Translations under genes and position numbers: made by a program
Notes under the pieces: model-generated
Databases searched by the model: none
What the model was told of the DNA's origin: nothing
The model's input: the letters and a program-made list of their open reading frames with translations, nothing else
Virus record (IMG/VR): IMGVR_UViG_3300032242_002232
Location: 1 to 64,000 of that record
DNA length: 64,000 bases
Strand: one strand, 5' to 3'
Source: a virus
Shown here: positions 3,225 to 42,757 of the stretch, piece by piece
How positions within the stretch are numbered: the stretch's first letter is position 1
Layout of the letters: each line of letters opens with the position of its first letter

Positions 3225-4834
3225 GCTTTACAGGCACCTTATTGCCTTATCAGGTAGAGGCAGTAGAGGCTATGGTTTCTCGCAAGCGCATGCTTGTTGC
3301 CTATGATCTTGGGCTAGGTAAAACTGTCCTCACAATTGCTGCTTTGGAAGAACTTAGAGACTCCGGAGATATAACCGGTCCTGGTATAATTATCTGCTTA
3401 TCTTCCCTCAAATATCAGTGGAAGCAACAGATTGAGAAATTTACAAATGGATCTGCAAACGTTGTGGTCATTGACGGAACGCCGTCAAAACGAGCACAAC
3501 AATACACAGAGGCTCTCGACTGGGGGCATACACTCGTTGATTACGTCATTATTAACTACGAGCAAGTTGTTAACGACTGGAAGTGGGTTGAACAACTACC
3601 AAGAGAGTTCGTTGTCTGCGATGAAGCAACAGCAATTAAATCTTTTAAATCAAAACGAGCAAAATACGTAAAAAAATTAAAGAGTCCAGTTAAGTATGCA
3701 TTGACCGGAACCCCAGTAGAGAATGGTAAGCCTGAAGAACTTTACAGCATTATGCAGTTTGTAGATGAAAAGGTTCTTGGAAGATTTGATCTTTTTGATA
3801 ACACTTTTATTGTGCGTAATCGTTTTGGTGGCGTAGAGAGATACAGAAACTTACCTCTTCTAACTAAAACTTTAGGTGGAGCATCAGTACGCAAACGTCA
3901 ATCCGATCCAGATGTTGCCCCATATTTACCAGAGTCTTTGCATGCGGAACCAATTTTTGTTCCTTTTGATCGAGCCGGTAAAAAACTATATACACATATT
4001 GTTCGAGACCTCGTTATAAATTTAGATGATGCGATGGATTCGTTTGGTTCTGGGTTTGATATTTTTTCTCATTACGGTCAAAGCGACCAAGGCGGGATGA
4101 TGGACGAGCTTCGGGGGCTTATAATGTCTAAGATGACTTGTTTACGCTTATTATGTGATGATCCTCAATTATTGTTAAAGAGCGCGGACAAGTTTGACAA
4201 CGGATCGGTAGTGGTTGACGGCACCACGTTAAACATTCCGGGTTTTTACGGTGGGTCGGGTTATGCTTCTGAGTTAAAGGCTTTGGGTTTGTTAGAAGGA
4301 ATGACTTCAGGACCTAAACTTGAAGTTTTAAAACAATACATAAATGATTTTTTGTCTCAATACGATCAAAATAAAGCTGTAATCTTTTCAAGTTTTGTAG
4401 GTATGACGTCATTACTGCAGAACTCCTTGCCTTACGGCTCTGTTGTTTACACAGGTCAAATGAATGCAAAACAAAAAGAAGCAGCAAAGATAAAGTTTCA
4501 AACAGATCCCGAGTGTAGGTTGTTTATATCTTCCGATGCCGGGGGATATGGTGTAGACTTGCCTCAGGCAAACTTGTTAGTCAATTATGATCTACCTTGG
4601 AATGCCGGGTTAGCGGTTCAGCGTAATGGTAGGATTAAACGCGCTTCCAGTACTTGGGAGCGTATTGTCGTACAAGACATACTAATGGAGAACTCACTCG
4701 AGCAGCGTCAACGAGAGATGTTGTTGCAAAAGTCTGCTATAGCTAATGCTGTAATAGACGGCGAGGGTATTAATGACCAGGGTGGGGTAAACCTTACCGT
4801 GGGAACCTTGAGGGCGTTTCTACTAAATACATAG
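3221..4834 (+). CDS. SNF2-family helicase
   Basis: LLPYQ, DLGLGKT, CDEA, ALTGTPVEN, GGYGVDL, YDLPWN, QRNGRIKR. Confidence 0.92.
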   Translation: MSFTGTLLPYQVEAVEAMVSRKRMLVAYDLGLGKTVLTIAALEELRDSGDITGPGIIICLSSLKYQWKQQIEKFTNGSANVVVIDGTPSKRAQQYTEALDWGHTLVDYVIINYEQVVNDWKWVEQLPREFVVCDEATAIKSFKSKRAKYVKKLKSPVKYALTGTPVENGKPEELYSIMQFVDEKVLGRFDLFDNTFIVRNRFGGVERYRNLPLLTKTLGGASVRKRQSDPDVAPYLPESLHAEPIFVPFDRAGKKLYTHIVRDLVINLDDAMDSFGSGFDIFSHYGQSDQGGMMDELRGLIMSKMTCLRLLCDDPQLLLKSADKFDNGSVVVDGTTLNIPGFYGGSGYASELKALGLLEGMTSGPKLEVLKQYINDFLSQYDQNKAVIFSSFVGMTSLLQNSLPYGSVVYTGQMNAKQKEAAKIKFQTDPECRLFISSDAGGYGVDLPQANLLVNYDLPWNAGLAVQRNGRIKRASSTWERIVVQDILMENSLEQRQREMLLQKSAIANAVIDGEGINDQGGVNLTVGTLRAFLLNT

Positions 4835-5052: not shown

Positions 5053-5091
5053 ATGGCATACCAATCGGCACCAGAACTAAAGGAGCACCAA

Positions 5092-5529
5092 ATGCCACAA
5101 ATTGAGTCATCACCACGAAAAATTTCAGCTAACCCACTTCTTGCAAAAGTTCGAGAATACCTCACTTACAAGAAAAAGATTGATGAGCTCTCCAAATCAC
5201 AGTCTGAAATTAAAAACGAATTAATGGAGGAAGTAGAAAACAACGGCGTAGAGGATGATAAAGGCCATCTATGGCTAGAGCTTCCTGAAGAAGTAGATGG
5301 CTATGTGTCTTTACAGCGTCAGCGCCGTGTATCACAAAAGCTTGACATGGATGCTGCGGTGGTTCTATTAGCTACTAAGGGCCTTGCAGATCGTTGTATT
5401 AAAGCTCTTCCAACAGTTGATGAGGATGAGGTTATGGCTTGTCTTTATGAAGGAAAGCTTTCTGAAAAAGATATTGACACAATGTTTCCTAAGACAGTTA
5501 CCTGGGCGTTTGTCCCAAGCAAGAAGTAA
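5092..5529 (+). CDS. hypothetical coiled-coil protein
   Basis: SD AAGGAG before ATG 5092. Confidence 0.65.
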   Translation: MPQIESSPRKISANPLLAKVREYLTYKKKIDELSKSQSEIKNELMEEVENNGVEDDKGHLWLELPEEVDGYVSLQRQRRVSQKLDMDAAVVLLATKGLADRCIKALPTVDEDEVMACLYEGKLSEKDIDTMFPKTVTWAFVPSKK

Positions 5530-30813: not shown

Positions 30814-30886
30814 TGGACCATAGCTCAGTTGGCAGAGCAGGCGACTGTTAATCGCCAGGTCCCTGGTTCGAGCCCAGGTGGTCCAG
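30814..30886 (+). tRNA. tRNA-Asn (GTT), CCA not encoded
   Basis: TGGACCA/TGGTCCA acceptor, GCTC D arm, GGCGA-CTGTTAA-TCGCC, CCTGG-TTCGAGC-CCAGG. Confidence 0.95.
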
Positions 30887-35250: not shown

Positions 35251-36645
35251 CTACTTACTTGTCTTTAGCCAAGCATCGACTTCTTCACCGATGTTTGATG
35301 CTTCAGGTTTCTGTTCTTCTGTCTCAACGAGACCGAAGTCCTCCTTGATGTTGAACTCATGGGTCATCATGACAAGAGCAACTTTTTCTTGCTCTTCTTT
35401 ATCAAAGTGTGCTACGAAATTAGCAATTGCAAACTCATAGTTGAACTTGATAAACTTTTCCAACTCCATGAACATGTTGGTTGATACTGGAGTCTCAAGG
35501 TCACCCTTGGAAGCCTCAGCACGAAGCTGCTTCGCAATAACGAGAAGCGACTTGTGTGTGATGAGCTTAGACTCTACGTCATCATCGTAATCCCACGGGA
35601 CCTGCAACTCAAAGCGATTACGCATCGCAAAGTTGAGTGGCGTTGTACCGGTGTAATCAGGATTCATAGTTGCAAAGATTGCAAGGTCTGGGTGTGCCTG
35701 AATGGTCTCACCATGATGATCGAGCAGGATCAAGCAGCGTCGTCCATCAAGAAGTGAATACAGAATTGTGTAGATTTTTGGCGAGATAAAGTTGAGCTCG
35801 TCAAGAATAAGAGTACCGCCGTTACGTACAACGTCAGTTACTGGACCGTCAATCCACTCGAACCCACCGCTTCCATCTGGTACATATTTACCGATGAGTT
35901 GGCTAGGTTCTAGAGCAGCATTGCCAGATACAGCAGCTAGACGACGTTTACGTGAGGCAGACCATGCAACAATAGACGTAGTCTTACCAGGGCCGGTAGG
36001 GCCGTAGATAAGCGTGGTCAATCCATTATCTAACGCGTAATCAAATAGGTCAAAGTCAAGAATGTCACCCGTAAGTTTACGGTTGACGTACTTGTTGGCT
36101 TGTTCGATTGGGGGAATCGTAGCTAATGCAATCCGAAGTTTTGAGGTTGAGACAAGCTCTGTCTCTTCGACCTCAGGGGCTGCGGATGTTTGTGTTGGCA
36201 TGAATTGCGCTTCTTCTTGTGAGTCTCGTTCACGACGTAGGTCGTTAACATACTCAGTCAATGAAGGATCCACTACATTCACTCTGTTGTATAGCGCAGT
36301 GATGCGGCTTGGTACTGAACCAAACTCTTCATCTTTATCTGCTTTAGCATACGCTGCCATTGCTTTAGTAGACAACACAGGAGACCAACCGGTCTGTGAT
36401 ATTGCCTGCTCATCAGCAAGAGTAACTGTTATGCCAACAGGTGTAGTAGTGATGTATTCATTGCTTGAGATACTCGCAAGCAACTCAGGTAATGATGTGA
36501 TGTCCCAACGATTTGATTTGCCAGGACCACCATCAGTGAGTCTTGAATAGACCTTTGTCTCATCGTTATGAGGTACGAAAAGTATTTGACGCTTCTCGTC
36601 TCCCATCGATGGTTCATAAGTCTCTACGAACATCGCTATATTCAT
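35251..36645 (-). CDS. MoxR/CbbQ-family AAA+ ATPase
   Basis: GPTGPGKT, WIDGP, ILDELN, ATMNP.Y, AMRNRF. Confidence 0.92.
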   Translation of the reverse strand: MNIAMFVETYEPSMGDEKRQILFVPHNDETKVYSRLTDGGPGKSNRWDITSLPELLASISSNEYITTTPVGITVTLADEQAISQTGWSPVLSTKAMAAYAKADKDEEFGSVPSRITALYNRVNVVDPSLTEYVNDLRRERDSQEEAQFMPTQTSAAPEVEETELVSTSKLRIALATIPPIEQANKYVNRKLTGDILDFDLFDYALDNGLTTLIYGPTGPGKTTSIVAWSASRKRRLAAVSGNAALEPSQLIGKYVPDGSGGFEWIDGPVTDVVRNGGTLILDELNFISPKIYTILYSLLDGRRCLILLDHHGETIQAHPDLAIFATMNPDYTGTTPLNFAMRNRFELQVPWDYDDDVESKLITHKSLLVIAKQLRAEASKGDLETPVSTNMFMELEKFIKFNYEFAIANFVAHFDKEEQEKVALVMMTHEFNIKEDFGLVETEEQKPEASNIGEEVDAWLKTSK

Positions 36646-36693
36646 ATTGCCTTTCCCTTCTCACTGGAGAACCCCGATGGTTCTCTCAGCTAG

Positions 36694-36737
36694 TGTGCTA
36701 TCAGGATTCGAACCTGATTACTGCACCACGCTAGCAC
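36694..36737 (-). ncRNA. 44-nt anticodon-less tRNA-like element
   Basis: GTGCTA-GCGTGGTGCAGTAA-TCAGG-TTCGAAT-CCTGA-TAGCAC-A. Confidence 0.65.
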
Positions 36738-36747
36738 TGAGAAAAGA

Positions 36748-36786
36748 GTAAGGACCGGCGCCGATATCAGACACGCCGGTCCTTAC
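36748..36786 (-). promoter_or_regulatory. 13-bp perfect hairpin (terminator/processing site)
   Basis: GTAAGGACCGGCG/CGCCGGTCCTTAC, then TCTTTTC on - strand. Confidence 0.6.
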
Positions 36787-36947
36787 ACCTATTTACTGCT
36801 TACTCAATGAAGAGGATACTTAGTTGGCATAGAAGACCCGATACTCCACGCTATAGACTAAACCGCGATGACCGATATACAGACGTCAATCGTTGAATAG
36901 CTGCTATGACTGATACTCTCTTCCGACCCTGTTTTCCAATAAAGAGC

Positions 36948-37610
36948 CTAGCCCTCAATAGGTTCTTCCTGTGACATCTCACCAGTTACGATATTGAGCC
37001 GTAATGGTTTGGTGATGTCCCACTCCGATAGGATGAACTTACCACCCCATGGAACTTTACCTTTCCCACCACATCTATGACAGTCTGCCTGTTCACGATG
37101 CGGGACATTTCTTGTTTCTCCTTGTTTAGTACAGTTAAGATTGATATGGAATGTTTTATTACGACTGTCAGTGACTGGTCGCCACCCATCTTGTCCTGTA
37201 CACAAGAACGTGTGTCTCTTTTGTCCACTGCAATTGCCACAGCGTCTCTCTTTCAAAGGAGTTTTAGCTGAAGCAGCGGTAGATATCAACAGCTTTTGTT
37301 TACGATAGATTAGATCATTTAAGTTAGCGTAGTTAGCAACTGCCCTACGCCACGATGCTCTCATGAACATAGTTACCGGAGGAATGACAACCATTCCATT
37401 TGGTTCGTAGATAACAAGCGGGTTATCTTTTGACCAATAAGGTGCAATAGATACCTGATCATTCTCTAGTCTAAATGCGTAAAGGCTACGCTCATACAAT
37501 GGGCGCTTGCCTTCTGGATCTTTACCTTCTTCGATATGTTTAATGGCTGAGTCATAGTCATACACTCTCAGCCATTGATTATGGGGAAGAAGTTGAGCTT
37601 TGTCTACCAC
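36948..37610 (-). CDS. protein with DnaJ-type CxxCxGxG Zn motifs
   Basis: CGNCSGQK, CHRCGGKG. Confidence 0.6.
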   Translation of the reverse strand: MVDKAQLLPHNQWLRVYDYDSAIKHIEEGKDPEGKRPLYERSLYAFRLENDQVSIAPYWSKDNPLVIYEPNGMVVIPPVTMFMRASWRRAVANYANLNDLIYRKQKLLISTAASAKTPLKERRCGNCSGQKRHTFLCTGQDGWRPVTDSRNKTFHINLNCTKQGETRNVPHREQADCHRCGGKGKVPWGGKFILSEWDITKPLRLNIVTGEMSQEEPIEG

Positions 37611-37899
37611 GTATATATTCCCTTCTCTCGTCTTCTGTTAAACCACCCCACATGCCGTGGGATTGGTTGGTTCTTATTGAGAAGTCAAAGCATTCCTTTG
37701 TTACAGAGCAGGCATTGCAGATAGCTCTAGCTTTTGCTATTCTATCGGCTTTATCCCCACCCCTTTCTTGGTCTTCATAGAAGAACACGTCCGAATCAAC
37801 TTCCCTACACAACCCGCGTTGTTGCCAATCCCATTGGTTCGGTCTTGGGTCTAACGGCATTGTGTTAGAAGGATATGACTCATACTTTTTCCTAGACAT
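37579..37899 (-). CDS. whiB: WhiB-family factor #3
   Basis: WQQRGLC...VFF...ICNACSVTKEC...HGMWGGLTEDER. Confidence 0.92.
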   Translation of the reverse strand: MSRKKYESYPSNTMPLDPRPNQWDWQQRGLCREVDSDVFFYEDQERGGDKADRIAKARAICNACSVTKECFDFSIRTNQSHGMWGGLTEDERREYIRGRQSSTSSP

Positions 37900-37901
37900 A
37901 A

Positions 37902-38303
37902 TTACATCATGTCTAAGATTTGTTTAGTGATACTGATCTCTTCCTCAGTAGATAGACGAAGAGTAGTCAATAGCTTTTCTCTATGTCCATTGATATGTCC
38001 ATAACCATATCCATTTGTATATAGGTTATTAGACCAATCAGCGGAACGGCTTAGTTGTGGCATTGAAGGTAGGCTTACAGTCTTATCAAAAGTAATGCTT
38101 ATTCCTTTACCATAATTAAGTGTATCAATCTCACACTTGCCTTCTTTTAAAAGCTCAGCAATAGCATTAACATACTTTGTCTTTTCAGCTTCGTATGTAT
38201 CTCTTGCTGTTTTAGCTTTTGCTTTAGCTTCAGCTATGCGTACAGCCTCTGCTTCTTGTTTAGTTTCAAGTTCTTTAATGAACTCTAGTCTATTCAGCTT
38301 CAT
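37902..38303 (-). CDS. hypothetical coiled-coil protein
   Basis: SD GAAGGG. Confidence 0.65.
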   Translation of the reverse strand: MKLNRLEFIKELETKQEAEAVRIAEAKAKAKTARDTYEAEKTKYVNAIAELLKEGKCEIDTLNYGKGISITFDKTVSLPSMPQLSRSADWSNNLYTNGYGYGHINGHREKLLTTLRLSTEEEISITKQILDMM

Positions 38304-38328
38304 GCTTTTCCCTTCTGATATGAGTAAT

Positions 38329-38394
38329 GAGCCTTTTTACCTTAGGTCATGCTCAGGACCAAGTAGCAGTTTTAGTTATCATGCTCAGGATAAT
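38329..38394 (-). ncRNA. two tandem H-type pseudoknots with identical CUGAGCAU loop
   Basis: TTATC-CTGAGCAT-GATAA-CTAAAAC-TGCT and GGTC-CTGAGCAT-GACC-TAAGGTAAAAAG-GCTC. Confidence 0.7.
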
Positions 38395-38456
38395 TGGTGT
38401 AGCGGAAGCGGAGATTTCGACACGCAGTGTCTCCCAATCCAAGTCGCGTACCAATA

Positions 38457-38624
38457 CTATGAAAGAGAGATAGGTTCGCTATCCTCTTTACGGTTAGCTC
38501 GAAGAGTATCGAGCTTTGCATTAAGTGCTTCAAGATCTTTTGTCATTGCATCAAGCTCACGCTCAATAGACTCAAGATATTTGTTGATGTTCTTCATGAA
38601 CTCATTCAGTTCTTCAGGGGACAT
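38457..38624 (-). CDS. small coiled-coil protein
   Basis: MSPEELNEF..., SD GAGG. Confidence 0.6.
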   Translation of the reverse strand: MSPEELNEFMKNINKYLESIERELDAMTKDLEALNAKLDTLRANRKEDSEPISLS

Positions 38625-38626
38625 AA

Positions 38627-38731
38627 CTACCTCTTTCTCCTGTTGATGATTGATGTGAGCACGATAGTAATGCTTAGCATTACCATAATGCAAACGATTG
38701 AGTTCTCAGATATATCAAACGATACTGACAT
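38627..38731 (-). CDS. 34-aa single-TM peptide (not in ORF track)
   Basis: MSVSFDISENSIVCIMVMLSITIVLTSIINRRKR; SD GAAGGG. Confidence 0.55.
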   Translation of the reverse strand: MSVSFDISENSIVCIMVMLSITIVLTSIINRRKR

Positions 38732-38754
38732 ATTGATCCCTTCTATCTACCACG

Positions 38755-39007
38755 ATGGCAGATAAGTACACCAACCTGATATCCCGAATCTATTGTCCAG
38801 ACACGAGTTTTTTACGGACTCATTGTTTTGACTTCTACTTCGTTAGTAGAGACGCGTTTCGGCTACGCCTAACGCCTTCAATGCGTGTCCTCAAGCTGAT
38901 CAATGCTAGATTACAAGGTCTTTTTCCAACATAGAGTTATAGTCAGTTGTGCGCCTATGCCGGGGAAAACGGCGATGTTCAACCAGGTTGATGTACTTAC
39001 CTGCCAT
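38755..39007 (-). ncRNA. about 250-nt structured RNA closed by a 24-bp stem
   Basis: 38755-38778 vs 38984-39007; both mismatches are G-U only on the - strand. Confidence 0.65.
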
Positions 39008-39014
39008 AATAATG

Positions 39015-39166
39015 AGGAGCAAGGCTATGGAAAAGGGAGGAACGTCACCAGCAGCTCCTCTAGCTTTTATTGCACATTCCTTCGAGTTCCGCTGGTCTAC
39101 CAATATGTGGCTGGATATATCGGGGAATATAGAACCACCTAGCATCCTAGTCATAGCCTTGCTCCT
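39015..39166 (-). ncRNA. about 150-nt structured RNA closed by a perfect 15-bp stem
   Basis: AGGAGCAAGGCTATG/CATAGCCTTGCTCCT; strand inferred from the operon. Confidence 0.6.
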
Positions 39167-39196
39167 GCCCTACATTCTGTCTGACGGGACAGAACC

Positions 39197-39298
39197 CTAT
39201 TTGTGCTCTCTCATATGATTCATGAGAGTCATGTATGCAAATGAAGATCTAACCTCAATTTGTTTTTTACATACTTCACATATAACTATTTTGCTCAA
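39197..39298 (-). CDS. 33-aa C2H2 zinc-finger peptide (not in ORF track)
   Basis: MSKIVICEVCKKQIEVRSSFAYMTLMNHMREHK; TTGA coupling. Confidence 0.6.
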   Translation of the reverse strand: MSKIVICEVCKKQIEVRSSFAYMTLMNHMREHK

Positions 39299-39558
39299 GA
39301 CAAGAGCCGTTTCTTGAAGTCTAATGACGCCTCTTCGATTGTCTCAAAATAGTGACCCCAATAACAGCGACCACTTTCATGATGATAAATCCATGTAACA
39401 AATGGGTGATAGGTGCTGGCAGGAGCATGACATAGGATTACATCACACTCGATATCAGCACTAACCTTGTTTGCAAGAATAGTGGCGCCTGTAGAGACAC
39501 CACCATCTCCCTGTAATACTGTGCCTACCTGAATGGTAGATACTATAGGCCGGCTCAT
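39295..39558 (-). CDS. hypothetical protein
   Basis: PFVTW...YWGHYF. Confidence 0.65.
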   Translation of the reverse strand: MSRPIVSTIQVGTVLQGDGGVSTGATILANKVSADIECDVILCHAPASTYHPFVTWIYHHESGRCYWGHYFETIEEASLDFKKRLLS

Positions 39559-40184
39559 ATTGCCTCAATCTCTGCTTTAGCAGCATCAAGTGCTTCTTGC
39601 TGTAATGCTAGTTCAGCAAGCTTGGCTTCTTTGAGCTTTACCTTAGCTGTGCTTAGATAAGACACCAACTCTTCAGCCTCTTGTAGACTGATAGTAATTG
39701 TCTTACCTTTCGTAACTTCAATCTTGTTAGAGTGTGGGTTGATCTCATAACTGAGAGCACTGTCACAATAACAATATGATGAACGACATTTGCACATAGG
39801 TTTATCCTCCTCTTCCTTTTCTTGATTATAGAATTGGGGCTTCTTATCACCCTCTTCTATTAGCCTGATATTACTAAGCCACATAGTTCTACGAACTACG
39901 TTGGCACCTTCTTCATTAGAGCCATAAGACCAGTAGCGGTCGTACATACCAGATTTGTTTGTATATCGGCTGGGCATTTCCATCAGCACAGCGACATCAC
40001 GATTTCTAGCACCTACGGCTACTACCTTCCATTTATGTGTTGCGTACCTATCACGATTAGAGGTGACAGTATCGCCGGGGAATATTTTTGATATACCCCA
40101 GTAGTAATACCGATTCTCTTCTAACTCAGGATAGTCTTTACGAAACCGCTCTAATGTCATAGCATTTGGTAATACTCGACCCAT
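39555..40184 (-). CDS. hypothetical protein
   Basis: SD AAGGAG. Confidence 0.65.
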   Translation of the reverse strand: MGRVLPNAMTLERFRKDYPELEENRYYYWGISKIFPGDTVTSNRDRYATHKWKVVAVGARNRDVAVLMEMPSRYTNKSGMYDRYWSYGSNEEGANVVRRTMWLSNIRLIEEGDKKPQFYNQEKEEEDKPMCKCRSSYCYCDSALSYEINPHSNKIEVTKGKTITISLQEAEELVSYLSTAKVKLKEAKLAELALQQEALDAAKAEIEAI

Positions 40185-40198
40185 TAGAGTCTCCTTTA

Positions 40199-40315
40199 CT
40201 AGTCGTTACACGTCTTATTGTGTAACCTATAAAACAGCGAGTCAACTACTGGAATTTTCCACCAAATTGACCACCATTTATTGTGGTTGTACATACTGCA
40301 GATGAGACTGCTCAT
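40199..40315 (-). CDS. 38-aa peptide (not in ORF track)
   Basis: SD GGAGG; MSSLICSMYNHNKWWSIWW... Confidence 0.4.
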   Translation of the reverse strand: MSSLICSMYNHNKWWSIWWKIPVVDSLFYRLHNKTCND

Positions 40316-40325
40316 GCACCCTCCT

Positions 40326-40469
40326 TTACTTGCAATTAGAGCAATAGTTCATAACTCTTACTTCAGACGGGGCAACAGAATAGACGCGGGAACAATGAGA
40401 GCAGGTAACCTGTGTCATTGGAGTCTTAGTCTTAGGTGTAAACCCCACCTTGATAGATATATGGAACAT
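40326..40469 (-). CDS. Zn-ribbon peptide
   Basis: SD AAGGAGG; CSHC...CSNC. Confidence 0.6.
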   Translation of the reverse strand: MFHISIKVGFTPKTKTPMTQVTCSHCSRVYSVAPSEVRVMNYCSNCK

Positions 40470-40645
40470 AATGCCTCCTTCCACTCCCATAAGGAGTGGG
40501 GGATACACAAGGAAGAATACCTACACACTCATCAAAGAGTCTCAGTAGTAAGTCTTATGTATCCTCCACCTCATACGGAACAGCAGCGCAGCCTTTCGCG
40601 GGGAAAATAGGGGCGAGAGGGCGAACTCATAGTTAAAATGGCAAT

Positions 40646-40692
40646 AAAAAAAGCCCCAGTCATATAGCAATTACACTATACAACTGGGGCTT
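40646..40692 (-). terminator. intrinsic terminator
   Basis: AAGCCCCAGTTGTATAG/CTATATGACTGGGGCTT + T7. Confidence 0.75.
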
Positions 40693-40716
40693 ACGTAAAA
40701 AAAGGGCGGGGGGAAA

Positions 40717-40872
40717 CTAATCTATGGGACTATCATCTATAGAGAGAGCATAAGACTCATCTGCTACACCAGCCTCATAGCCATCCCACCATGCTGTCCT
40801 GTATGTAAAGAACCATACAAGGAAGCCTATAACTAGATCAATCAAGAGATTGAATCCATTGTAGAACATCAT
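40717..40872 (-). CDS. small membrane protein
   Basis: SD AGGAGG; one TM helix. Confidence 0.6.
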   Translation of the reverse strand: MMFYNGFNLLIDLVIGFLVWFFTYRTAWWDGYEAGVADESYALSIDDSPID

Positions 40873-40999
40873 ACCTAACCTCCTAACTAAGAGAAGGAGG
40901 CAAGGCATAGAGGCAGAGCACACTTAGTGATTTAAGCTAATAGCACCTCTACACCTGCCAACCATCTTTTCACCCTCTGAGATAGAGAGTCATAAGCCA

Positions 41000-41015
41000 T
41001 GTTTCACGTGGAACA
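41000..41015. promoter_or_regulatory. parS: parS centromere-like site
   Basis: TGTTTCACGTGGAACA; reverse complement TGTTCCACGTGAAACA fits consensus TGTTNCACGTGAAACA; intergenic. Confidence 0.8.
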
Positions 41016-41124
41016 TAGCCTATGGCAAACTACCTGATAAGAGCAGTCCGCCCCCTCTCCAGAGCTGGTTATATAGATGGAGAGAGGGCAGACCGCTTGA
41101 GCAGTGGCTTTTATTTCCTGCCGA

Positions 41125-41679
41125 TTAGATAATGGCGCTAATCAACGCTTGGACTGCACGGAGTTGAGCCTTCTCAACATCCGAGATGTCCTGACCTAGA
41201 ATTGCCTCAAGTGATGACTTGAAAGCGGGTGTTGTCTCTCCAAGAGAAGCCTTAGAAGCCTTGAGAGCCTCTGACTGAGCCTTCTTAGCAAGAGCAACCT
41301 CAGCAGCGCGTGAGGCTAGAACCTCTGCTGCATCAGCCTTACCGAGTTGAGCCTTGATTTCCTCCCAATGAATTGAGGTGAAAGCGGCAACAACATCAGC
41401 GTCAATGCCCTGAGCAATAAGAGCACCGAGATAGACAGGTCGTTGGAAGCCATTGGTGAGGAACTTCTTATCAACAGACTCAGCGTCTGTCTTGTCCCCA
41501 CGATTAGTCATGGCTTCAACTACCTGAACACGGACATCGCTCAGGATAGAGTCGGGTGTATCCCCACCCATAATGGCGTCCGCAACTGCACGGCGAACCT
41601 CAGGGGCAGAGAGATTAGCATTACCAGCGTCAAAGACGCGGGTTGCTACTGATACACGGGTATCTGTCATTGTAGACAT
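41125..41679 (-). CDS. first gene of the leftward early operon, Ala-rich helical protein
   Basis: SD GAAGG before ATG 41679. Confidence 0.7.
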   Translation of the reverse strand: MSTMTDTRVSVATRVFDAGNANLSAPEVRRAVADAIMGGDTPDSILSDVRVQVVEAMTNRGDKTDAESVDKKFLTNGFQRPVYLGALIAQGIDADVVAAFTSIHWEEIKAQLGKADAAEVLASRAAEVALAKKAQSEALKASKASLGETTPAFKSSLEAILGQDISDVEKAQLRAVQALISAII

Positions 41680-41740
41680 AGTATTACCTTCTAGGAGTAG
41701 GGGTATCCATACACGGTGTATGCGATAGAGCCTACGCCCG

Positions 41741-41813
41741 TGTGCTGTGTGGAATCGAACAGGTAAAGGGAATACCCCCCATAAGGGCACATGGCTAGTC
41801 ACCAGACCAGCAC
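41741..41813 (-). ncRNA. second, degenerate tRNA-like element
   Basis: GTGCTG...GTC-TGGT-GAC...GTTCGATTC-CACA-CAGCAC-A. Confidence 0.4.
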
Positions 41814-42165
41814 GAAGGCAGGATAGAACGCGAGCACACTTGGTAATTTATGGAATAAAAAAACCACAGCGATAACGATTGCCAGAAAATAGGCATAGTT
41901 ATCCTGTGGAGTGTGCGGGCTACATCATCAACCGCGTTCACATATATTCTATTCTTGTTACCATCTTGTCTTTTATGCCCCCTATGGGTTAAATGTGACT
42001 TATGTAACTTATCGCCAGGTGAGACAGGCAACCATGACTATGATTTGTGGGGCAGTGGCCTAAAAATTTTCAAGGTCGGGGGAATTTCAGGCAGTGGCTA
42101 GGAATAAATTCGCTGGGGAAGGTGTTATTGTTAGCTGTCCTGCCCGATCGGGGGGATAAAACAAC

Positions 42166-42185
42166 TTCTCGTCTAAGGAGAGAAA
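42166..42185 (+). promoter_or_regulatory. ROSE-like SD-sequestering hairpin
   Basis: TTCTC(G)TC-TAAG-GAGAGAA masks AAGGAG of hsp20. Confidence 0.5.
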
Positions 42186-42187
42186 GA

Positions 42188-42619
42188 ATGCATACTCATG
42201 TCTACACACCAACACCTAATCTCAACTCTATTTATCCTGGGATCAATCGCTGGGCTATTGGATTTGATCCTCTATTTCAAACGCTGGGGCAAATTTCTCA
42301 AGCTAAAGATACGTATCCGCCATATAACGTCCGTAAAGACGGGGAAAACTACATCCTAGAGATGGCTGTGGCCGGTTTTGCCAAGGATGAGCTATCAGTT
42401 ACAGTCAAGGAGCAGACTCTTACTGTCAAAGGCTCTAAGGAGGACTCAGAGGCTGAATACCTACATCAGGGAATCAGTGCTCGTGACTTCTATCGTGACT
42501 TTGCTTTGGCTGAATACGTCTCTGTCAAGTCAGCAAAGATAGTTGACGGGCTGCTGACAATCGTTCTTCTTCAAGAGTTGCCAGAGGAGAAGAAGGAAAA
42601 GATCATCACTATCAAGTGA
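42188..42619 (+). CDS. hsp20: small heat-shock protein Hsp20/IbpA
   Basis: IGFD, YPPYNV, EMAVAGF, YLHQGIS.R.F.R.F.LAE, DGLLTI, PEEKK. Confidence 0.95.
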   Translation: MHTHVYTPTPNLNSIYPGINRWAIGFDPLFQTLGQISQAKDTYPPYNVRKDGENYILEMAVAGFAKDELSVTVKEQTLTVKGSKEDSEAEYLHQGISARDFYRDFALAEYVSVKSAKIVDGLLTIVLLQELPEEKKEKIITIK

Positions 42620-42631
42620 TATGCTTCGGTA

Positions 42632-42757
42632 ATGACTGAACTTACTAATGTAGAGGGCACTATCAAGGTTTGCAGGGTCTGTAGCCCAACAGCTAAGACG
42701 CCTTGTCAGCTAGCGGCCACAATTTGTCCGTATAGAGACATTAATACTCTAGCTTAA
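42632..42757 (+). CDS. 41-aa Cys4 peptide, leaderless (not in ORF track)
   Basis: TATGCT-6-ATG; CRVC...C...CPY. Confidence 0.45.
   Translation: MTELTNVEGTIKVCRVCSPTAKTPCQLAATICPYRDINTLA

Follow-up and report, generated by a model that had tools for sequence, protein, structure and literature searches.

The early polycistronic mRNA of phage T7 reportedly carries RNase III processing signals, a finding credited to Dunn and Studier, and T4-type phages are said to harbor PeSL (promoter-early stem-loop) cassettes, which Arbiol et al. reportedly described in 2010. RNase III cleaves long near-perfect duplexes, and a T-loop arm stacked on an acceptor-like stem is the minimal substrate shape for RNase P. 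The lambda nut/boxB hairpins and the HK022 put RNAs are further systems for comparison. RNase P cleaves the YrlA RNA of Mycobacterium smegmatis, which has a tRNA-like domain (PMC4201824).

Here we analyzed a 64,000-nt stretch of DNA (the window), part of a ~99-kb record of a WhiB-encoding phage from freshwater metagenomes; the phage is a freshwater actinobacterial phage. Spacers between its small early genes contain conserved RNA stem-loops that are real and belong to no described RNA family. Judging from sequence comparison, these stem-loops most likely serve to cut, stabilize and regulate the early mRNA, and are most likely neither tRNA mimics nor a host-takeover weapon. A host-takeover role for the RNA array and its processing into discrete sRNAs, which a sequence-only reading of this DNA had proposed, found no support.

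Structured RNA on the sense strand of the early region

All of the inverted repeats listed by the sequence-only reading lie where it placed them, and the leftward operon carries the structures, as it had said, on its sense strand. Against dinucleotide shuffles of the minus strand, the inverted-repeat elements gave MFE z-scores of -3.8 to -6.9. When 120-nt segments were scanned across the genome (composition-corrected z, threshold z < -2), structured segments were enriched within 36600-42100 (17/90, versus 75/1562 elsewhere; odds ratio 4.6, Fisher p = 3.8e-6), and the strongest segment genome-wide was 40981-41100 on the minus strand. Of the structures claimed for nearly every gap, most exist, but some turned out to be a DNA site, an insertion or a conserved sequence box.

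Comparisons drew on 3-7 lineages per element (L and G numbers) and on sequencing runs with contigs of the region (X numbers), and several depend on one close relative, L062; among the runs listed with this sequence there was no RNA run. The claim that selection acts on the RNA structures held up: greater conservation than neighboring genes relative to L062, compensatory changes, with stems covarying in up to seven lineages, and a preference for G·U on the sense strand. Non-coding elements are 93-100% identical to L062 (CobS leader 97%, I6 93%, I1 arms and 38317-38376 100% each), whereas flanking genes are 71-88% identical. Mismatches read as G·U on the minus strand at 2/24 positions of the stem at 38755 and 3/20 of the stem at 41042, and single substitutions in L062 yield G·U pairs. 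Sense-strand pairs in 15 long stems from the window and its relatives include 26 G·U versus 13 A·C (p = 0.027), an excess of 2:1 only, and G·T is also tolerated by single-stranded DNA. The structures exist, are conserved, covary and prefer the sense strand. Support is strongest for the CobS leader, the I6 domain with its core stem and loop, the long-range I1 stem, the hairpin at 41042-41097 and the leader at 41734-41822.

A search of 4227 Rfam families returned no match to a described RNA in the array and no riboswitch or other cis-regulatory RNA beyond chance, the chance-level matches being mir-1954, DABA-DC-AT, mir-2058 and DUF805b (E 0.1 to 8). The Rfam tRNA family had no match within 36400-42700, either at gathering score or at E<=5. 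Together, ARAGORN and Rfam located tRNAs only at 30814 (tRNA-Asn) and 42768 (tRNA-Gln), and ARAGORN reported none at either of two sites, 36694 and 41741, previously interpreted as tRNA mimics.

The leader of the CobS-like ATPase gene

This leader, on the minus strand, comprises a pair of hairpins that share a conserved GUCUG-N(2-4)-AUCGG loop, a minihelix with a canonical T-loop, and one more hairpin ahead of the ribosome-binding site; the downstream ATPase matches Pfam AAA_5 and the next protein matches VWA_2 (E 0.0023, below gathering score). The first hairpin, HP0 (36861-36896, loop GUCUG-N3-AUCGG), scored 30 bits (E 3e-5) with covariance model R1, and its stem has other sequences in L007/L008 and in L009 with pairing kept. 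HP1 (36748-36786, z = -6.6) is a 13-bp hairpin formed by a 13-nt inverted repeat (36748-60/36774-86), with an HP0-type conserved loop and a pyrimidine tract after it. Across nine copies, both sides have changed in 10/12 of its pairs, and 81.5% of cells are paired as opposed to 58.5% in shuffles, with 0/500 shuffles as high. Assessed as an intrinsic terminator, HP1 offers only a mixed pyrimidine tract, which is missing in three lineages.

The HP0/HP1 motif occurs in only 1-2 copies per genome, invariably ahead of the CobS-like gene, and its conserved loop is a probable binding site for a protein or RNA. The likeness to lambda nut and HK022 put lies in this copy number (1-2 hairpins per genome), in a loop that is conserved while the stem is not, and in a position within the early transcript just before a terminator-like hairpin and U-rich tract. 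Sequence similarity and a boxA are lacking, however, no N-like protein was found, and the function here is putative.

The pyrimidine tract (36738-36747, minus strand) is predicted to be the 5' strand of a closing helix, P1, whose partner, 36654-36663, forms the 5' portion of the Shine-Dalgarno region. We infer P1 from MFE folds of the window, L007, L008 and L009 and from the RNAalifold consensus. HP3 (36666-36686, minus strand), a short hairpin immediately before the ribosome-binding site, has another stem in each lineage, and in L062 one of its A-U pairs has become G·U. P1 and HP3 may partly occlude the ribosome-binding region, and the leader as a whole could be a regulatory module dedicated to the CobS-like/CobT-like gene pair.

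HP2 (36695-36737, minus strand) is a tRNA-like minihelix in which an acceptor-like stem stands on a T-arm with the loop UUCGAAU. It covaries, with 96.7% of cells paired and both sides changed in 7/10 pairs (slid controls at most 50%), and the equivalents of G53, U54, C56, A58 and C61 are invariant in six sequences. The complete T-arm (5-bp stem, 7-nt loop, G53 U54 U55 C56 R57 A58 C61) is present in the window, L062, L007, L008 and L078; L006 carries a G in place of U55, and in L009 and L003 an ordinary hairpin without the T-loop features takes its place. The mimic claimed at 36694 thus shows a canonical T-loop on an acceptor-like stem, but belongs to the tRNA family neither by ARAGORN nor by Rfam, whose tRNA family had no match within 36640-36900 at E<=10. 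Rather than a 7-bp acceptor with a 3' NCCA, HP2 has a stem of 5-6 bp followed by ACUA, ACGG or ACGC.

HP2 shares with YrlA and minihelix substrates a 5-bp stem and 7-nt loop of T-loop consensus set directly on the acceptor-like stem, and is a candidate RNase P substrate. It differs from them in having no D-arm and no 3' CCA, in an acceptor of 5-6 rather than 7 bp, and in the missing T-loop of two lineages. Unlike YrlA, it lies inside an mRNA leader; it matched neither the tmRNA nor the YrlA family of Rfam, and Pfam reported no TROVE (Ro60) match among ten proteins from 31-37 kb and 42-56 kb, so that neither mark of a Y RNA was found.

The remaining spacers and a parS-type site

The tandem pseudoknots proposed at 38329 dissolved on analysis: the gap 38304-38456 has a z of +0.5, a weak consensus fold and zero covariation. 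In their place lies a conserved sequence box (38317-38376, minus strand) that immediately precedes the next start codon; it is 80-83% identical in L007/L008, there ahead of whiB. The hairpin after the 55-aa gene (38394-38455, minus strand) has no significant MFE z-score; relative to L062, three of its pairs changed on both sides, one change is consistent and one disrupts pairing. I3 (40487-40578, minus strand, z = -4.05) is a long hairpin, imperfectly paired, that stops at the ribosome-binding site of the 47-aa gene, with 22/25 positions paired between its 25-nt arms (40487-511/40554-78). These arms are similar to those of three hairpins in L079, and the changes in L062 are mixed.

A terminator scan identified an intrinsic terminator at 40651-40692 (minus strand), 100% identical in L062, in which a 19-bp stem with seven G-C pairs is followed directly by a run of 7 U. 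This strong terminator argues against the single early polycistron that had been postulated, and would leave two or more transcription units in the region. The hairpin at 40899-40959, previously counted as part of the array, lies in a strain-specific insertion (40884-40974, minus strand) that is absent from close relatives (L062, X2) and has other sequence in X4 and X5.

G5b (41042-41097, minus strand, z = -6.9) is a 20-bp hairpin after the 184-aa gene, with 20-nt arms (41042-61/41078-97) that covary in five lineages (the window, L062, L009, L008 and L079) and a conserved loop and 3' tail, UUAUCAGGUAG. The second proposed tRNA mimic, at 41741, has no T stem and no tRNA by ARAGORN or Rfam; it is part of a structured leader of the 184-aa gene (41734-41822, minus strand). 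The closing helix of this leader covaries in three lineages. A further covarying element is a hairpin whose loop reads UCCCUU, while GUUCGAUUCC is conserved and unpaired.

One 'hairpin' proved to be a bona fide parS-type DNA site (41000-41015, no strand assigned), one mismatch away from the 16-bp palindrome TGTTNCACGTGAAACA and present once in 99 kb. It recurs at the same place in L062 (a perfect copy) and L009 (one mismatch); the phage has no ParB_N domain. The site lends some weight to the view that the inverted repeats act as DNA, as protein or recombination sites, a replication origin or cassette boundaries, with RNA folding incidental, and so do the sequence themes common to stem copies, which resemble repeated DNA sites, the 13 A·C mismatches on the sense strand, and the fact that the region is a hot spot at which relatives have gained, lost or replaced cassettes. 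However, the stems covary without constraint on their sequence, which would be incompatible with a sequence-specific duplex DNA site, the G·U excess falls on the sense strand, and the conserved parts are in loops rather than in duplex. Deletion joints, where readable, fall at repeated ribosome-binding sequences and not at hairpins, and we consider a DNA role for the repeats improbable. The same joints distinguish the region from PeSL cassettes, which it otherwise resembles in its hyperplastic early region, tiny genes, repeated stem-loops and gene gain and loss among close relatives; a further difference is that promoter-like sites are not above chance here (13 observed versus 15.1 expected).

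The 38732-39196 block and a model for early mRNA

Two end-paired domains, I1 and I6, occupy this block on the minus strand. I1 (38755-39007, z = -6.9) is closed by a long-range 24-bp stem (38755-78/38984-39007, 24-nt arms with two mismatches; 27 bp in L062). Between arms that are unchanged in L062 its interior is 61% identical, and in runs X2, X3 and X4, with contigs spanning both arm positions, the interior has been swapped. I6 (39015-39166, z = -3.8) is a ~150-nt domain with a perfect 15-bp closing stem (39015-29/39152-66, 15-nt arms) that has other sequences in L008 and L078. In its core (39047-39096), an 8-bp stem that covaries encloses a 34-nt loop; across four lineages, 33/34 loop positions (39055-39088) are invariant and 5/8 stem pairs show compensatory changes. 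A small hairpin (39175-39194, minus strand) follows the stop codon of a 33-aa gene, and also occurs in L008 with altered stem bases.

This conserved 33-aa gene was hidden in 39155-39294, a gap previously taken as non-coding, and might suggest that 38906-39154 and other gaps likewise encode small proteins with the structures as by-products; the frame across the invariant stretch is indeed open (82 aa in the window, 101 aa in L062, 75 aa in L078). Yet the ~10 window-L062 differences in 39008-39154 all change an amino acid and none is silent (alignment by eye), synonymous changes are absent from the 12 conserved codons across four lineages, L008 contains a stop and lacks an upstream start, and protein similarity is absent beyond those 12 residues. 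Coding is highly improbable, and the I6 core has no conserved reading frame.

A free-standing multi-domain ncRNA gene acting in trans through the invariant loop fits other features: the block keeps 2-4 adjacent end-paired domains while gene neighbors change (it follows the 33-aa gene in the window and L008 and precedes a 209-aa homologue in L078), the loop is near-invariant where proteins are 55-73% identical, and the block has neither a conserved reading frame nor an Rfam match. But it is not bounded by promoter-like or terminator-like signals, it is absent from clade members G002, G003, G004 and L003, and a search of 185,579 species genomes for a complementary target gave chance matches only, which together leave such a gene rather unlikely. 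It could correspond to the 'functional sRNA' part of the earlier proposal. Like GOLLD, ROOL and HEARO, the block is ORF-free, multi-domain and several hundred nucleotides long (corresponding blocks are ~560 nt in L008 and ~650 nt in L078) in a lake-metagenome phage; it is much smaller, is only a candidate for a free RNA, and has no Rfam match at gathering score or E<=5. We raise only tentatively, as one joint proposal, that the block and its L008 and L078 counterparts are a new modular class of phage ncRNA and the CobS-like leader a second new motif. Two to four end-paired domains would be released from the early transcript, the almost invariant 34-nt loop of one would bind a conserved host component, and the leader would join protein-binding loops to a tRNA-like processing handle.

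On balance, the spacers probably hold cis-acting sense-strand RNA elements that punctuate mosaic small-gene cassettes, for which we infer roles in cleavage, stabilization, and control of translation or read-through. The long near-perfect stems (I1, I6, G5b, I3, HP1), whose 5' arms are rich in purines and 3' arms in pyrimidines, could be processing and/or stabilizing signals for an RNase III-type host endonuclease. Near-continuous dsRNA of at least ~20 bp, as RNase III calls for, is present in I1 (24 bp), G5b (20 bp) and I3 (22/25), and processing of the early transcript by RNase III and RNase P is plausible. Any cleavage would fall to a host enzyme, since an RNase III gene is lacking in the phage. 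RNase III sites need neither the conserved loops nor the invariant 34-nt loop, which speaks somewhat against this reading and points to further putative partners; I6 may present its loop to a specific one. As in T7, related stems recur on the sense strand between small early genes, with a host enzyme presumed. In this phage the stems are longer and close to perfect (13-27 bp), the T7-type internal loop is absent, domains of 150-250 nt are closed by some of them, several have conserved loops, and the host is an actinobacterium in which cleavage is putative.

Gene expression is almost unstudied in phages of the abundant freshwater low-GC actinobacteria. Our analysis defines several covariation-supported RNA motifs outside Rfam, with coordinates and relatives, and the HP2 minihelix in an mRNA leader and the domain with a nearly invariant loop offer testable handles on early expression in uncultured phages. 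Should the large block prove to exist as a free RNA, the few large structured phage RNAs would be joined by a new one.

Fold strength and conservation across the leftward operon

The window covers the opening 64 kb of an IMG/VR virus record of 99,213 bp that is complete by CheckV. The structured region is a leftward (-) series of small genes whose end comprises whiB (Pfam E 1e-21) and the genes for a 220-aa CxxCxGxG protein, an AAA_5 ATPase resembling CobS and a protein that matches VWA_2 weakly; its right-hand neighbors, on the + strand, are the genes for Hsp20 and tRNA-Gln, an HNH gene, and those for the large terminase and the portal. The WhiB homology points to an actinobacterial host, and the DNA runs that contain the sequence are mostly labeled as freshwater or lake metagenomes; no RNA run was listed for it. 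GenBank phages gave no match by megablast. The 657-aa VWA protein matched nothing in PDB or NCBIfam. Scanning with the CobS-like protein retrieved members of the same ~100-kb phage clade, the protein being 72-73% identical in L007/L008 and 58-59% identical in L003/4/5, L006 and L009. A metagenome scan matched only L062 (~84% DNA identity over 41120-36400) and L063, a motif scan added G001/L078, and the sequence of one further relative, G006, stops 1.9 kb into the region. IMG/VR searches with the 209-aa protein and with its alignment found no match.

All inverted repeats named in the sequence-only reading lie where it placed them, and its G·U counts in the stems were correct. Compared with dinucleotide shuffles, minimum free energies on the - strand were exceptional for the 36748 hairpin (z -6.6), 36650-36745 (z -4.0), 38755-39007 (z -6.9), 39015-39166 (z -3.8), 40480-40585 (z -4.05), 40895-40965 (z -3.8) and 41035-41100 (z -6.9), and ordinary for 41680-41800 (z -0.15). 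In a genome-wide scan of 120-nt windows with composition-corrected scores, z fell below -2 for 17 of the region's 90 windows but for only 75 of the 1562 others (odds ratio 4.6, p 3.8e-6), and no window in the genome was more extreme than 40981-41100 on the - strand. By self-BLAST, none of the elements has dispersed copies in the genome.

Genes in the region are 71-88% identical to those of L062, whereas non-coding elements score higher: 97% for the CobS leader, 93% for the end-paired domain I6 (39015..39166), 100% for both arms of its neighbor I1 (38755..39007; interior 61%), and 100% for both 38317-38376 and an intrinsic terminator at 40651-40692 found by terminator scan. Tandem pseudoknots had been proposed at 38329, but 38317-38376 holds no supported structure and the surrounding gap, 38304-38456, has an ordinary fold energy (z +0.5); the stretch is a conserved sequence box that sits before whichever gene comes next.

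The leader of the CobS-like gene

The leader (36646-36896, -) carries four hairpins. The loops of HP0 (36861..36896) and HP1 (36748..36786) share the motif GUCUG-N(2-4)-AUCGG, which the 99-kb genome contains exactly two times. When nine copies from six lineages are compared, 10 of the 12 stem pairs have changed on both sides, and 81.5% of cells are paired, versus 58.5% in shuffles (0/500 as high) and at most 49% with a slid partner. A covariance model of this motif (R1), run on five whole genomes, found one or two copies in each, every copy directly before the CobS-like gene; a further 52 CobS-like loci, more distant, yielded no copies with either R1 or model R2. In L078 a gene of 58 aa lies between HP1 and the remaining leader, so HP1 is an independent module.

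In HP2 (36695-36737), an acceptor-like stem is stacked on a second stem of 5 bp, which closes a 7-nt loop. Its cells are 96.7% paired (slid controls, 50% at most), with 7 of 10 pairs changed on both sides, and the loop keeps the tRNA T-loop consensus in the window, L062, L007, L008 and L078; L009 and L003 have an ordinary hairpin at this position. The tRNA mimic proposed at 36694 survives as a T-loop minihelix form but not as a tRNA relative, with no tRNA, tmRNA or YrlA match up to E<=10. As modeled, HP2 is tRNA-minihelix-like and outside the tRNA family. HP3 (36666..36686) precedes the ribosome-binding site in all lineages with a different stem each time, and folds predicted for four lineages pair the 5' part of the ribosome-binding region with a pyrimidine tract that comes after HP1.

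The end-paired domains at 38732-39196

I6 (-) is closed by a 15-bp stem, perfect in the window and of other sequence in L008 and L078. Its inner stem, of 8 bp, shows covariation in four lineages: ACCAGCGG, GUCAGCAG, AGAUACAG and GCCAUUGG, the respective 5' strands, each have their own partner, with at least one sense-strand G·U in each version. This stem encloses a 34-nt loop (39055-39088) in which 33 positions are invariant. I1 (-) is held by a 24-bp long-range stem; both 24-nt arms are unchanged in L062, and 94-164 nt of the interior are replaced in contigs of three other runs in which both arm positions are covered.

One rival reading is that such structures are sites acting at the DNA level. 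Over 15 long stems of the window and its relatives, however, we counted 26 G·U versus 13 A·C pairs on the sense strand (p 0.027). A miniature transposon is rejected for I1, which has neither target duplication nor other copies and occupies the same locus in relatives; an invertible segment is rejected too, the interior being collinear in L062 and the sole cross-strand match being the arms themselves. The invariant loop is flanked by a covarying stem, contrary to a phage attachment core, and is single-copy in the genome, contrary to a repeated promoter. Scanning genome contigs with it yielded only chance matches (an alphaproteobacterial repeat, a Bacillus gene) with no common flanks, identifying no host target or attachment site. 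One DNA site does lie at 41000-41015, a single-copy parS-type palindrome common to L062 (perfect copy) and L009. Its position is the same in both and the phage has no ParB domain, which suggests from sequence that a host ParB may be used.

A second rival is that the block encodes small proteins. An 82-aa frame over I6 fails as a gene: about ten window-L062 differences in 39008-39154 alter the residue (called by eye on the alignment), the 12 conserved codons are free of silent substitutions, the frame contains a stop and lacks a start in L008, and no other protein-level alignment was found. The adjacent gap 39155-39294 does encode a 33-aa CxxC...HxxxH protein (ORF 39197-39298, -, overlapping the stop codon of the 87-aa gene); being 72-88% conserved in L062, L008 and L079, it is a real micro-gene. 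Separately, a 34-aa peptide conserved in L062 (38627-38731, -) is hydrophobic, has a basic C-terminus and looks like a small membrane toxin or a peptide of the holin type; its ribosome-binding site begins ~10 nt beyond the 3' arm of the 24-bp stem.

A third rival, a free multi-domain RNA, would be built from tandem end-paired domains with related arms (purine-rich 5', pyrimidine-rich 3'); among the relatives, L008 has three such domains, L078 four and L079 more. The gene neighbors of the block differ among lineages. L079 also has three more long hairpins (3550-3689, 3909-4005, 5090-5372), whose arms GGNGGAAGAUACA / UGUAUCUCNC resemble the window hairpin 40487-40578, pointing to a putative multi-copy stem family in the clade.

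Further elements and a cis-acting reading

The hairpin at 41042-41097 (-) occurs in five lineages with a covarying stem, conserved loop and conserved 3' tail, and that at 38394-38455 gained three compensatory pairs in L062. In the leader of the 184-aa gene (41734-41822), the closing helix covaries in three lineages, a hairpin whose loop is UCCCUU also covaries, and single-stranded GUUCGAUUCC is conserved; the tRNA mimic proposed at 41741 is a real structured leader lacking the T stem. Loops UUCCCUU, UUCCCCG and UUUUCCC at 41775, 39125 and 38965 (-) are complementary to AAGGGAA ribosome-binding boxes used across the operon.

The operon also turns over. An insertion at 40884-40974 is missing from L062 and sequencing run X2, and gene cassettes in 39549-40321 are gained or lost among close relatives: the 209-aa gene is missing in X2, and a 38-aa frame is missing in L062 and X3 by deletion between two AGTAAAGGAG ribosome-binding repeats. 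Between the operon and the Hsp20 gene, non-coding block 41960-42100 is conserved far beyond coding level in L008, L079, L009, L003 and G006 and is probably a divergent control region; within it, two GGCCACTGCC boxes spaced by 38-39 nt are followed by CTGTCNNACCTGGCGAT and TAACCCATAGGGG. A third box, GCCACTGC, comes after the 184-aa gene at 41101-41108 and is present in L009 and L062 as well.

The RNA-based host takeover proposed earlier found no support. The best-supported reading is a set of cis-acting mRNA elements, in which RNase III-type stems would serve to process and stabilize mRNA. Alongside them are a dedicated regulatory leader that bears a tRNA-like handle, a single terminator, and a domain that would bind a putative specific partner. 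Since the phage has no RNase III gene, host enzymes would act on these stems; cleavage and discrete RNAs are inferred.
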